Shown here: one piece after another, positions 40,162 to 45,660 of the stretch
Layout: every line of letters starts with the position of its first letter
Numbering within the stretch: position 1 is the stretch's first letter
Sequence record: NC_018087.3
Reading direction: 5' to 3' (one strand)
Length of the DNA stretch: 64,000 nt
DNA from: Acinetobacter phage ZZ1
The notes under the pieces: model-generated
Seen by the model: the letters and a program-made list of their open reading frames with translations, nothing else
Database searches by the model: none
Told to the model about the DNA's origin: nothing
Translations under genes and position numbers: made by a program

Positions 40162-40392
40162 TTATTGAATTACTGCAGTAGGTGTATAAAAATTAGATAA
40201 TACACTTAAAATCTTATCTAATTCAACTAATGCATGATATCGATTTTTATAAACTGATCTATGTTCGGTACATTCAACTTTGATACCAGTTGAAATATGA
40301 GTAACTCGAACACCTCTATCGGGCGTATTAACCCAATTACTATGTTTGCCTACTCTAAATGTATCAATTCTAATATCAGAAGGTAGTAGCAT
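40162..40392 (-). CDS. release-factor GGQ-domain-like protein lacking the GGQ motif (76 aa)
   Basis: DIRIDTFRVGKHSNWVNTPDRGVRVTHISTGIKVECTEHRSVYKNRYHAL aligns with the RF1/RF2 domain-3 core ([49 protein letters not shown]), but GGQ is replaced (HSN/KHS). Confidence 0.55.
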   Translation of the reverse strand: MLLPSDIRIDTFRVGKHSNWVNTPDRGVRVTHISTGIKVECTEHRSVYKNRYHALVELDKILSVLSNFYTPTAVIQ

Positions 40393-41431: not shown

Positions 41432-41518
41432 TGGTGTGCCCCCTGGGATTCGAACCCAGATAGCGTTAGCGCCGGAGTTACAGTCCGGTGAGTATGGCCA
41501 ATAACTCGAACGAGACAC
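41432..41518 (-). tRNA. tRNA-Tyr (anticodon GUA), type II with long variable arm
   Basis: Acceptor GTGTCTC/GGGGCAC (G.U wobbles), anticodon arm CCGGA-CTGTAAC-TCCGG, variable arm GCG-CTAA-CGC, T-arm CTGGG-TTCGAAT-CCCAG, CCA. Confidence 0.7.
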
Positions 41519-41733: not shown

Positions 41734-41800
41734 AATAAAATATTGACGACCTAAGAACCTTTACACCAATAATGGAGACTTAGGACCCTTTACATCAATT

Positions 41801-41879
41801 TGGCTCCCACCGTGAGATTCGAACTCACCTAACCTCGGATTAACAGTCCGGTCCATGCACCTAGCTCGGATTCGTGGGA
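41801..41879 (-). tRNA. tRNA-Asn (anticodon GUU)
   Basis: Anticodon loop CUGUUAA as in E. coli tRNA-Asn, T-arm GTGAG-TTCGAAT-CTCAC, acceptor with one mismatch, CCA. Confidence 0.65.
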
Positions 41880-41886
41880 ATAATTC

Positions 41887-43398: not shown

Positions 43399-43599
43399 TA
43401 ATTTACCATCTTCATTTAAAATTCCATAAATTGAACGGCTTGATGTTTTATCAATGCACTTGCGACAAATCTATTTATTCATGGTAAACCTCATCAATTA
43501 AGGGTTAAAAGAAATAAAGGAGGTTTTTCATTCAAGGACCTCATACCTTTGCCAATGAGAGGGCATGCTAAGCAGTGGTCACATCTCAGGCTATGAATT

Positions 43600-43675
43600 T
43601 GGTGGATACCGGGAGTGCTTGCACCTCCAATCAACTACGTTGTCCGCTGCTTTACTATTTAAGCTAACAGTACCC
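43600..43675 (-). ncRNA. atypical tRNA-like RNA gene (acceptor stem + CCA, non-canonical arms)
   Basis: Minus strand GGGTACT...GGTATCC-A-CCA forms a 7-bp acceptor stem (with G.U) and a D-arm-like GCTT-AAATAGTA-AAGC. It lies 1 nt 3' of tRNA-Cys, but the T-loop is GTGCAAGCA and no clear anticodon arm exists. Confidence 0.3.
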
Positions 43676-43753: not shown

Positions 43754-43944
43754 ATAAAATTTATTAAATGCAAGCAACTTCCTCAGTTTCCCCTGGCTAC
43801 CACACCAGTGCATTAAAGTTTCATTTATCTAGCATGACAGTCCCTGCAGTGACCAACATATTCAATAAAATTATTCAAAACTACATTTTCGGGAGCGACC
43901 CTATTCACTTCGTTTTTATATGCTATACTTGCTCTAATAAATCT

Positions 43945-44026: not shown

Positions 44027-44102
44027 TGGTCCGCCTGACAGGATTCGAACCTGTGTGAGTCGCAATAGAACTACGATGCCTAATCCATTCGGCCACAGAC
44101 GG
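44027..44102 (-). tRNA. tRNA-Arg (anticodon UCU)
   Basis: Acceptor CCGTCTG/CAGGCGG, anticodon arm TCGTA-GTTCTAT-TGCGA, T-arm ACAGG-TTCGAAT-CCTGT, CCA. T4 also carries tRNA-Arg(UCU). Confidence 0.65.
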
Positions 44103-44107
44103 ATGTT

Positions 44108-44188
44108 TGGTGGAAAAGACAAGAATTGCACTTGCATATCCAGGAGTTATTAAGTTCCCGGGCGTTCACTTTGTTTCGCCACTTTCCC
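44108..44188 (-). ncRNA. atypical tRNA-like gene with expanded (10-nt) anticodon loop ACUUAAUAAC and T-loop TGCAATT
   Basis: Acceptor GGGAAAG/CTTTTCC, A73, CCA; D-arm GGCG-loop-CGCC; anticodon stem CGGGA/TCCTG around a 10-nt loop; T-arm GCAAG-TGCAATT-CTTGT. Packed 5-7 nt from the flanking tRNAs like a real tRNA gene. Confidence 0.35.
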
Positions 44189-44195
44189 ATAAATT

Positions 44196-44269
44196 TGGTC
44201 GTTCAGGACGGATTCGAACCGTCACACAGAGTTTTAGGGACTCCTGGTCTACCGTTAACCTACTGAACG
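44196..44269 (-). tRNA. tRNA with anticodon CUA (amber/UAG-reading; suppressor-type), identity unknown
   Basis: Perfect acceptor CGTTCAG/CTGAACG, A73, CCA; D-arm GGTT-AACGGTA-GACC; anticodon stem GGAGT/ACTCT (one G.U) with loop CCCUAAA, so 34-36 = CUA; T-arm GACGG-TTCGAAT-CCGTC. C33 instead of U33 is unusual. Confidence 0.5.
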
Positions 44270-44440: not shown

Positions 44441-44576
44441 AGTAACTTTTAAATGATAACGAATATTGATGGGACTCGAACCACATATCAACCGGGTTTA
44501 ACAGGCCGGTTATGCTCCAGTATCAGGCGCAAGCTTAACCAATTAGCTACTAATTCATTATCATTTAAAAGTTACC
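44441..44576 (-). pseudogene. degenerate type-II tRNA-like element flanked by 18-bp perfect inverted repeat (23-bp stem overall)
   Basis: GTAACTTTTAAATGATAA (44441-44458) and its exact reverse complement (44559-44576). The enclosed ~95 nt has a canonical D-arm (AGCT-AATTGGTTA-AGCT), an Asn-like CTGTTAA hairpin and a TTCGAGT T-loop, but the stems do not close into a cloverleaf. Confidence 0.35.
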
Positions 44577-45204: not shown

Positions 45205-45660
45205 TTATTTTTCAGGAGACCAATCTAAATCTAAATCCTCAACATATTCATGCGTGGCGCCGATTGAAATTTTAAACTCCAATTTAGGCTTTGCCATCGC
45301 CCCAATATCATATGCTAATGTAATATGAGGTTGATAATCCGGAAAATCATAAGTTGCACCCAATGCTTGTGCATATGCAAAACGAGAGTGCAAATAAGGT
45401 GAATCTAGTAATAACACAAGGGCTCGTTTGCCGTTATGTTCAAATATTTCAAAGTCTTTAGCATATGCAATAATACCAAGATTGTCCATTGGTTTAAATG
45501 GAACAAACACACGAGAATAGCATATTGTAGAATGTAATTTATCGCGAGGTGTTGCATCAAATAACTTTAATTTATCTTGTAAATCGCATAAAGCATCTAA
45601 TGTGTCATTACTAAATTTGACCGCAGCATATGTACCACGGTCAAGTTGACTAAATTTCAT
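45205..45660 (-). CDS. 57B: gp57B-position protein (151 aa)
   Basis: Synteny (57B-57A-1-3-2-4) and size (T4 57B is 152 aa). Confidence 0.4.
   Translation of the reverse strand: MKFSQLDRGTYAAVKFSNDTLDALCDLQDKLKLFDATPRDKLHSTICYSRVFVPFKPMDNLGIIAYAKDFEIFEHNGKRALVLLLDSPYLHSRFAYAQALGATYDFPDYQPHITLAYDIGAMAKPKLEFKISIGATHEYVEDLDLDWSPEK

Follow-up and report, generated by a model that had tools for sequence, protein, structure and literature searches.

Among the transfer RNA (tRNA) genes of Acinetobacter phage ZZ1 lies one whose product would have the outline of a tRNA and an anticodon loop of 10 nucleotides (nt). What is such a gene for: does it decode, is it a relic, or does it serve a purpose outside translation? 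We have examined it within a stretch of 64,000 nt of the ZZ1 genome (NC_018087.3), which we call the window. The gene, named TL1 here, was recognized by reading the sequence as an 81-nt cloverleaf-encoding gene on the minus strand at 44188..44108, which corresponds to 76108-76188 in ZZ1 genome coordinates (constant offset 32,000). Judged by the way its sequence has changed among related phages, TL1 is a genuine tRNA-shaped small RNA gene kept by selection. As to what it makes, the reading that we favour, and in which we place about even confidence, is a processed, non-decoding tRNA mimic that is probably charged with alanine.

Structure of TL1

Read from 5' to 3', the first half of the RNA is GGGAAAG UG GCGA AACAAAGUGA ACGC C CGGGA ACUUAAUAAC and the second half UCCUG GAUAU GCAAG UGCAAUU CUUGU CUUUUCC A CCA. 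The whole element, with its encoded CCA, occupies 44108..44188 on the minus strand, as do all the parts given below, with G1 at 44188 and A76 of the CCA at 44108. The 5' strand of the acceptor stem, GGGAAAG (44182..44188), pairs with CUUUUCC (44112-44118) over 7 base pairs (bp), namely G1-C72, G2-C71, G3.U70, A4-U69, A5-U68, A6-U67 and G7-C66, the only G.U being 3:70. The discriminator A73 and the encoded CCA (44108..44111) are invariant in all orthologues. The D-arm, GCG(A)/(A)CGC with the loop AAACAAAGUGAA, lies at 44162..44179 and has no G18G19. What stands in place of the anticodon arm (44141..44160) is a 5-bp stem, CGGGA/UCCUG, paired C-G, G.U, G-C, G-C and A-U, closed by the 10-nt loop ACUUAAUAAC at 44146-44155. 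The 5-nt variable loop GAUAU (44136..44140) was delimited by alignment, and its U48 could form a Levitt-type pair with A15. The T-arm (44119..44135) has the 5-bp stem GCAAG/CUUGU and the T-loop UGCAAUU at 44124-44130 (U54-G55-C56-A57-A58-U59-U60). The earlier note on this DNA had described a tRNA-like gene with this acceptor stem and its one G.U, A73, CCA, this anticodon stem with a 10-nt loop, and a T-loop with G55, naming no strand; all of these details are present in the sequence, on the minus strand.

Its tight packing among tRNA genes, also pointed out before, is equally real. Upstream, 7 nt away, is a tRNA with the anticodon CUA, of the amber-suppressor type (44196-44269, minus; called by ARAGORN; 59.6 bits with Rfam), and 5 nt downstream is tRNA-Arg(UCU) (44027-44102, minus; called by ARAGORN; 49.7 bits with Rfam). 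With spacers of 5-7 nt, an encoded CCA as in every neighbour and a U at position -1, TL1 has the traits of a member of the array. ARAGORN finds eight tRNAs in the window and these match Table 2 of the ZZ1 genome paper, where for example Sup(CTA) at 76196-76269 is our 44196-44269 (PMC4177764). The same paper reports the eight tRNAs and a 'CDS-devoid region' (CDS, coding sequence), and TL1 is missing from its list (PMC4177764).

Is TL1 then a tRNA? By the standard of Rfam, that is a cloverleaf with a 7-bp acceptor stem, a D-arm and 5-bp anticodon and T-stems that scores above the gathering score of the tRNA model RF00005, it is one: its score is 34.4 bits (gathering score 29; E=0.0019 over the whole window). 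Its minimum-free-energy fold is likewise the cloverleaf, at -19.3 kcal/mol, and a covariance model of the TL1 family, R1, gives it 94 bits and finds one copy in the window. By the rules for canonical loops it is not. A canonical anticodon loop has 7 nt, U33 and, at 37, a purine; that of TL1 has 10 nt in ZZ1 and 6 nt in the orthologues. The elbow also departs from the canonical pattern, in which the D-loop carries G18 and G19 and the T-loop U54-U55-C56: the D-loop of TL1 has no GG and its T-loop has G55, so that the gene reads TGC where a usual tRNA has TTC.

Conservation and selection on the structure

ZZ1 is a T4-like phage of the Straboviridae/Twarogvirinae. When 50,697 phage records were searched for TL1 by sensitive blastn, just eight gave matches, representing six Hadassahvirus phages (Maestro, Morttis, AB-Navy71, Bhz15, AbTZA1 and PhT2), at an identity of 76-79%. 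With the AbTZA1 copy as the query, the same eight records were matched at full length, and the other 45 records that were found aligned only over about 34 nt of the T-arm and 3' end. These orthologues give, with ZZ1, four distinct sequences for comparison: ZZ1, the Maestro type, PhT2 and AbTZA1 (alignment A2). Pattern scans elsewhere added no member to the family. In IMG/VR a D-arm pattern had eight matches, of which AbTZA1 was the sole real member, and the 16 matches to a T-arm/3'-end pattern were tRNA-Tyr genes, transfer-messenger RNAs (tmRNAs) and chance matches. In the JGI metagenomes none of 23 matches fitted model R1, and in 185,579 species genomes the 87 matches (about 70 expected by chance, by our own estimate) included none from Acinetobacter and none that fitted R1 at the site.

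The closest relative of ZZ1 in the phage collection is Henu6, and there TL1 is cleanly missing: tRNA(CUA) is followed by 6 nt and then by tRNA-Arg. The two phages are 98.8% identical across the shared parts of this 1-kb region. In vB_AbaSt_W16, the coverage by megablast is limited to the same parts of the region as in Henu6; this is a matter of coverage alone, the record itself not having been inspected. The comparison with related phages that the earlier note had suggested thus yields six orthologues and one clear absence.

Across the four sequences, 98.8% of the base-pair cells are standard and all four helices are supported; slid controls are 34-58% paired. Both sides have changed in 7 of the 20 pairs (three in the anticodon stem, three in the T-stem and one in the acceptor stem), which none of 500 shuffles equals, and the same cloverleaf emerges when RNAalifold is run unguided on the four orthologues. 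Between ZZ1 and AbTZA1 there are 16 substitutions. Of these 14 lie in stems and all preserve pairing; six pairs have changed on both sides with compensation, and none of the 20 pairs is lost. That number of compensated pairs was not reached in any of 200,000 neutral simulations (P<5e-6). The acceptor pairs 1-5 and 7 are invariant in the four variants, and pair 6:67 is A-U, U-A or G/A. In the D-arm, pair 11:24 changes from C-G to U.G and so is still paired. The anticodon stem has compensatory double changes at three of its five pairs with respect to the orthologues; the T-stem has three of five pairs compensated and one G.U turned into G-C.

The unpaired parts are more constrained than the stems. 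The D-loop is invariant save for one A/U position, the T-loop is invariant in all orthologues, and with A73 and the CCA they make up a nearly unchanging set, which points to sequence-specific tertiary or protein contacts. Stem covariation and near-invariant loops together therefore exclude a long-dead pseudogene.

The anticodon loop behaves differently. The 10 nt of ZZ1 stand against 6 nt (AUAAAC) in each of the six Hadassahvirus phages, and several indels and substitutions separate the loop regions of the lineages. Both lengths are incompatible with normal decoding. Maestro and AbTZA1, which both have the 6-nt loop, differ by six substitutions, four of which make up two compensated pairs (P=4e-4). 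Because these compensated pairs arose within the 6-nt-loop clade, the pattern of substitutions indicates that selection on TL1 continued without a decoding loop.

We also considered whether TL1 is a recent duplicate of a neighbouring tRNA and rejected this, as no more than 51 positions match any neighbour, which is the ordinary similarity between tRNAs. A decayed copy of a neighbour lacking conservation, the finding that would have spoken against the element from the start, is thus not what we see.

Alanine identity

The wobble pair G3.U70 is the major determinant for alanyl-tRNA synthetase (AlaRS), an enzyme that does not read the anticodon; this anticodon-independent role of the pair was reportedly established in 1988 by Hou & Schimmel and by McClain & Foss. 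TL1 carries G3.U70 together with the minor determinants A73 and G2-C71 and a 3' CCA. In the four variants G1-C72, G2-C71, G3.U70 and A73 are all invariant, while the other G.U pairs (30:47 and 54:70 in the numbering of the alignment) flip or turn into Watson-Crick pairs. Because its acceptor end carries G3.U70, G2-C71 and A73, TL1 is probably charged with alanine.

Proposed fate and role of TL1

How might such an RNA be made and used? We suggest that TL1 would be transcribed within the tRNA(CUA)-TL1-Arg-Met array; a scan for promoters and terminators gave results indistinguishable from those of shuffles. The enzymes that process tRNAs would excise it, with RNase P cutting at G+1 after U-1, and its 3' end would be the encoded ACCA/RCCA. 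The product is expected to fold into an L-shape with an unusual elbow, formed by a D-loop lacking G18G19 and a T-loop with U54-G55-C56, and host AlaRS would probably charge it by way of G3.U70, G2-C71 and A73. We infer that TL1 does not decode, because the length of its anticodon loop is non-functional and non-conserved (10 against 6 nt). Most likely, then, it would serve as a tRNA mimic: either a decoy or sponge that occupies a protein able to recognize the tRNA body, or a carrier of amino acids for uses other than translation. Among the ten open reading frames (ORFs) near the tRNA clusters that were scanned with Pfam, none encodes a transferase.

A second unannotated tRNA-like element, which we call TL2, supports the reading of TL1 as a non-decoding mimic. 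It lies at 43598-43675 on the minus strand, directly after tRNA-Cys, and is called by neither ARAGORN nor Rfam. Its acceptor stem, GGGUACUG/CGGUAUCC, is 8 bp long and includes G3.U; the D-arm, GCUU/AAGC, is devoid of GG, the T-loop reads UGCAAGC, and the 3' end is ACCA. In some phages the middle part measures 19 nt, in others 45 nt. Similar sequence turned up in 52 records of Acinetobacter T4-like phages, and TL2 matches in every one of them; the match covers 80% or more of the query in 51, and nearly all the records have no annotation at this place. G3.U, ACCA, the UGCAA T-loop and a middle of variable length are common to the two elements. Could they belong together? It may be that TL1 and the more widespread TL2 form a previously unrecognized set of non-decoding phage RNAs with alanine identity, charged by AlaRS and acting outside translation, a broader proposal that we regard as doubtful. 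As members of such a set they would be decoys or sponges that shield host and phage tRNAs from immunity proteins that attack either the body or the aminoacyl end of a tRNA, or else they might donate alanine to a putative transferase.

The surroundings are of interest here. The tRNA cluster region is syntenic with gp1-57A-57B-tRNAs-segB-rnaD-rnaC of T4 and includes a Seg homing endonuclease. Beside the cluster, at 45205-45660 on the minus strand, the homologue of gp57B is Acb1, a 2H phosphodiesterase directed against the cyclic-oligonucleotide-based antiphage signalling system (anti-CBASS; Pfam PF23474, E=1e-49). The cluster thus sits in an accessory region rich in anti-defence functions and adjoins a known counter-defence gene. 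Phage tRNA loci have been documented as counter-defence loci (PMC10264068; PMC13096335), among them loci with Seg endonucleases (PMC13096335).

A number of observations weigh against the reading that we favour. ARAGORN, proposed before as a check since it allows non-standard loops, made no call at TL1 when run on the window. The folding energy has a z-score of only -0.8 against shuffles, so that TL1 is not unusually stable; it stands out beyond chance because of its conservation, not its folding energy. The Hadassahvirus copies score at most 27.3 bits with the Rfam tRNA model, under the threshold of 29. The family is tiny, consisting of ZZ1 and six Hadassahvirus phages, and the covariation thus comes from four distinct sequences. 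Because it is absent from Henu6, the gene is accessory and dispensable. The 10-nt loop is seen in ZZ1 alone and might be a recent lesion. The D-arm resembles that of tRNA-Leu, so charging by leucyl-tRNA synthetase is conceivable. Lastly, some phage tRNA-Tyr genes of otherwise canonical form also have the T-loop UGCAAUU, as do two phage tmRNAs from IMG/VR (L019, L026), and since canonical phage tRNAs have the same T-loop, G55 alone is no proof of exclusion from translation. This T-loop also occurs in a Phe(GAA)-like gene of Acinetobacter phage KARL-1 (L032:5878-5953), which ARAGORN misses. The KARL-1 gene has a 7-nt anticodon loop with GAA and a D-loop without GG.

Alternative explanations

One alternative is that TL1 is punctuation for processing: its tRNA shape would be kept so that RNase P and the 3' enzymes cut the precursor, and the product itself would have no role. 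Bacterial RNase P recognizes the acceptor stem, the T-arm, the elbow and RCCA, and these are the most conserved parts of TL1. In the Hadassahvirus phages TL1 comes directly after a conserved structured RNA of about 190 nt, described below, and before an ORF, and a cut by RNase P at TL1 would set the 3' end of that RNA; in ZZ1 the 190-nt RNA is flanked by true tRNAs instead. However, RNase P does not need the anticodon arm, and yet three of the five pairs in the anticodon stem have been kept by compensation. Nor has processing any need of a wobble at 3:70, which is nevertheless invariant, and TL1 of ZZ1 lies between two ordinary tRNAs that need no added punctuation. We consider this explanation unlikely.

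A charged, non-decoding mimic has also to be set against a decaying pseudogene, by which an ancestral tRNA, possibly short-armed and with the anticodon UAA, was inactivated by indels in the anticodon loop, leaving a relic in ZZ1 that was deleted in Henu6. The clean deletion in Henu6 of an accessory gene, the same megablast gaps in vB_AbaSt_W16, the several indels and substitutions in the loop region between lineages and the silence of ARAGORN all suit such a history. So does the presence of other marginal, uncalled tRNA-like sequences in the cluster (41435-41516, with 25.4 bits in Rfam, and about 41795-41880). The best matches to R1 outside the family point the same way. They include a short-armed phage tRNA with the anticodon UAA, labelled tRNA-Leu by ARAGORN, which has a D-arm like that of TL1 (L023; 41 bits), and from this likeness the descent of TL1 from a short-armed UAA tRNA of that kind is plausible. 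R1 also matches a tRNA-like gene of phage KP27 (44 bits) that is flagged as a pseudogene in one record. Against decay, all 20 helix pairs are intact in ZZ1, the 14 stem substitutions out of 16 with respect to AbTZA1 all preserve pairing to an extent not expected under neutrality, compensation went on within the clade with 6-nt loops, and the D-loop and T-loop are nearly invariant. The pseudogene explanation is thereby limited to a possible, very recent inactivation of the ZZ1 copy alone, and we think it rather improbable.

Could TL1, finally, be a decoding tRNA with an expanded loop, that is a frameshift suppressor, a reader of quadruplets or quintuplets, an ochre suppressor (UUA) or a reader of UUA-Leu codons (UAA)? 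Several of these functions had been thought conceivable in the earlier note. The ZZ1 loop does hold C-U-U-A-A, the 5' part of the anticodon loop of tRNA-Leu(UAA), as well as UUA, the adjacent gene is the amber-type tRNA(CUA), and engineered tRNAs with enlarged anticodon loops can read longer codons. The comparison with relatives speaks differently: the loop has 6 nt in six Hadassahvirus phages whose stems still compensate, so no decoding geometry is conserved, and because the orthologue loop is 6 nt long a conserved frameshift or ochre suppressor is very unlikely. Known natural frameshift suppressors have 8-nt loops, an expansion of +1 and not +3, on canonical tRNA bodies, and we know of no natural suppressor with a +3 loop. 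Ochre suppression would be costly because TAA ends 48 of the 74 long ORFs in the window. A leucine (UAA) anticodon would clash with the alanine set on the acceptor stem. Alanine charging, predicted from G3.U70, would mistranslate UUA-Leu codons, and harm would come from any reader of UUA or UAA that carried alanine. The non-canonical elbow is like that of tRNAs excluded from translation, and sites complementary to the loop, which would be antisense targets, are not enriched (12 against 9.9 expected). We therefore give very little credence to a decoding function.

Other RNAs and genes of the region

Between tRNA-Met and tRNA-Cys, at 43754-43944 on the minus strand, lies the structured RNA of about 190 nt, which has no match in Rfam. 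It is 92-94% identical to its counterparts in the Hadassahvirus phages, above the conservation of the flanking tRNAs, and it is non-coding because the PhT2 copy has a 1-nt indel. Compensatory changes are found in its hairpins (CUGG..CCAG, CCGG..CCGG and CUUGA..UCAAG; GGG..CCC and AGG..CCU), and a long stem formed by its 5' and 3' ends closes the structure. It is always placed between two tRNA-shaped elements, Met and Cys in ZZ1 and TL2 and TL1 in Hadassahvirus. It occurs together with TL1 and is absent from Henu6 and Minot, whose loci were inspected; megablast coverage suggests that it is also absent from vB_AbaSt_W16 and Lazarusvirus. It may be an analogue of rnaC and rnaD of T4.

There are several other tRNA-like sequences on the minus strand. 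Between tRNA-Ser and tRNA-Pro (41435-41516) is a gene that resembles tRNA-Tyr(GUA) and has a long variable arm; its Rfam score of 25.4 bits is under the threshold, ARAGORN does not call it and it is not in the ZZ1 paper (PMC4177764). After tRNA-Thr, at about 41795-41880, the sequence can be read as a cloverleaf like that of tRNA-Asn(GUU), with an acceptor stem that is imperfect; no tool calls it, and it may be a decayed tRNA. Upstream of tRNA(CUA), at about 44455-44560, is a tRNA-like relic with a GGUUCGAGUCCCA T-arm, which is 86% conserved in Hadassahvirus and called by no tool.

The tRNA(CUA) itself (44196-44269, minus) has the loop CCCUAAA, with C at position 33 instead of the nearly universal U33. 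TAG terminates only 2 of the 74 long ORFs in the window. An ORF of 76 amino acids at 40162-40392 on the minus strand matches the RF-1 domain (peptide chain release factor / peptidyl-tRNA hydrolase; Pfam E=3e-10) but lacks the GGQ motif. Its homologues in related phages, within the tRNA region, are annotated as a release factor or a peptidyl-tRNA hydrolase.

Comparison with known systems

Phage tRNA clusters are now seen as counter-defence loci, but discussion centres on decoding tRNAs. TL1 would be a small and tractable model of phage tRNA mimicry, with a full tRNA body, alanine identity and an anticodon loop of freely varying length, and ZZ1 with TL1 and Henu6 without it form a natural presence/absence pair. 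The example shows, too, that conserved structured RNAs of such clusters escape standard annotation, as represented by our ARAGORN run and the ZZ1 genome paper. To which known RNAs, then, is TL1 most similar?

It shares with frameshift-suppressor tRNAs of the sufD and SufB2 type an enlarged anticodon loop on a tRNA-shaped body. Those tRNAs have 8-nt loops and fully canonical bodies, whereas TL1 has three extra nucleotides and not one, a non-canonical elbow, and six orthologues that have not retained the expansion and are one nucleotide short of the usual loop.

The closest known analogues of TL1 are the species 1 and 2 RNAs of T4 (rnaC and rnaD), given in the T4 record as stable RNAs of 139 and 119 nt, flanked by tRNA genes and with no function stated. 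Like TL1 they lie between tRNA genes of a T-even tRNA cluster, with gp1, 57A/57B, tRNAs and a Seg endonuclease in synteny. In the predicted fold of rnaC the terminal stem is acceptor-like and the T-arm canonical, and a long hairpin with a 6-nt loop takes the place of the anticodon arm. Both RNAs are longer than the 81 nt of TL1 and both are missed by the Rfam tRNA model; rnaC differs further in its normal UUCGAAU T-loop and in having no G3.U70. Homology of TL1 to rnaC or rnaD was rejected, since the local alignments score no higher than shuffles do and R1 matches neither, and a G3.U70 pair in rnaC was also rejected, the full-length fold giving it no support. The suggestion of the earlier note that TL1 resembles these RNAs thus holds as an analogy of location, tRNA-like ends and lack of a decoding loop, not as descent. 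A literature search on T4 species 1 RNA and on phage tRNA-like decoys found nothing directly relevant. The 10-mer ACUUAAUAAC of the TL1 loop (window 44146-44155) occurs identically in rnaC (L030:1909-2047), there within a stem and with a score inside the shuffle range, and this sharing is probably due to chance.

The best match to R1 outside the TL1 family, with 44 bits, is the gene of Klebsiella phage KP27 (Slopekvirus; L058:2453-2529) mentioned above, for which there is likewise no ARAGORN call. It resembles TL1 in its T-loop UGCAAAU, in the T-arm and the 3' end including a trailing AAAUUA, and in having an unusual D-arm. It differs in its canonical 7-nt loop (AUCUGAU, anticodon CUG) and in having C3-G70 and not G3.U70. 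From these likenesses homology to TL1 is plausible, not established. Genes of the KP27 type are annotated inconsistently across records, as tRNA-Gln, as 'tRNA-Leu pseudogene' or not at all.

With tRNA-Ala and the minihelices recognized by AlaRS, including the tRNA-like domain of tmRNA, TL1 has in common G3.U70, G1-C72, G2-C71, A73-CCA and an identity independent of the anticodon. Unlike tRNA-Ala it has no alanine anticodon. It differs from tmRNA in its length of 81 nt and its complete anticodon stem, and in lacking both an mRNA-like reading frame and pseudoknots. A tmRNA, or a two-piece tmRNA made with the adjacent 190-nt RNA, was considered and rejected, as no tag frame is conserved and the ARAGORN run on the window yielded no tmRNA.

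The non-proteogenic tRNAGly species of staphylococci show what an altered T-loop can accompany. They have TGC or TGT for TTC and no pseudouridine 55, are charged by the normal synthetase and are kept from decoding (PMC7826273). They belong to a cellular lineage, have a normal UCC anticodon loop and donate glycine to the cell wall together with Fem transferases, whereas TL1 has an abnormal anticodon loop, a Gram-negative host and a predicted charge of alanine. In its T-loop, TGCAATT in the gene, TL1 nevertheless has the same TGC for TTC that marks these tRNAs (PMC7826273).

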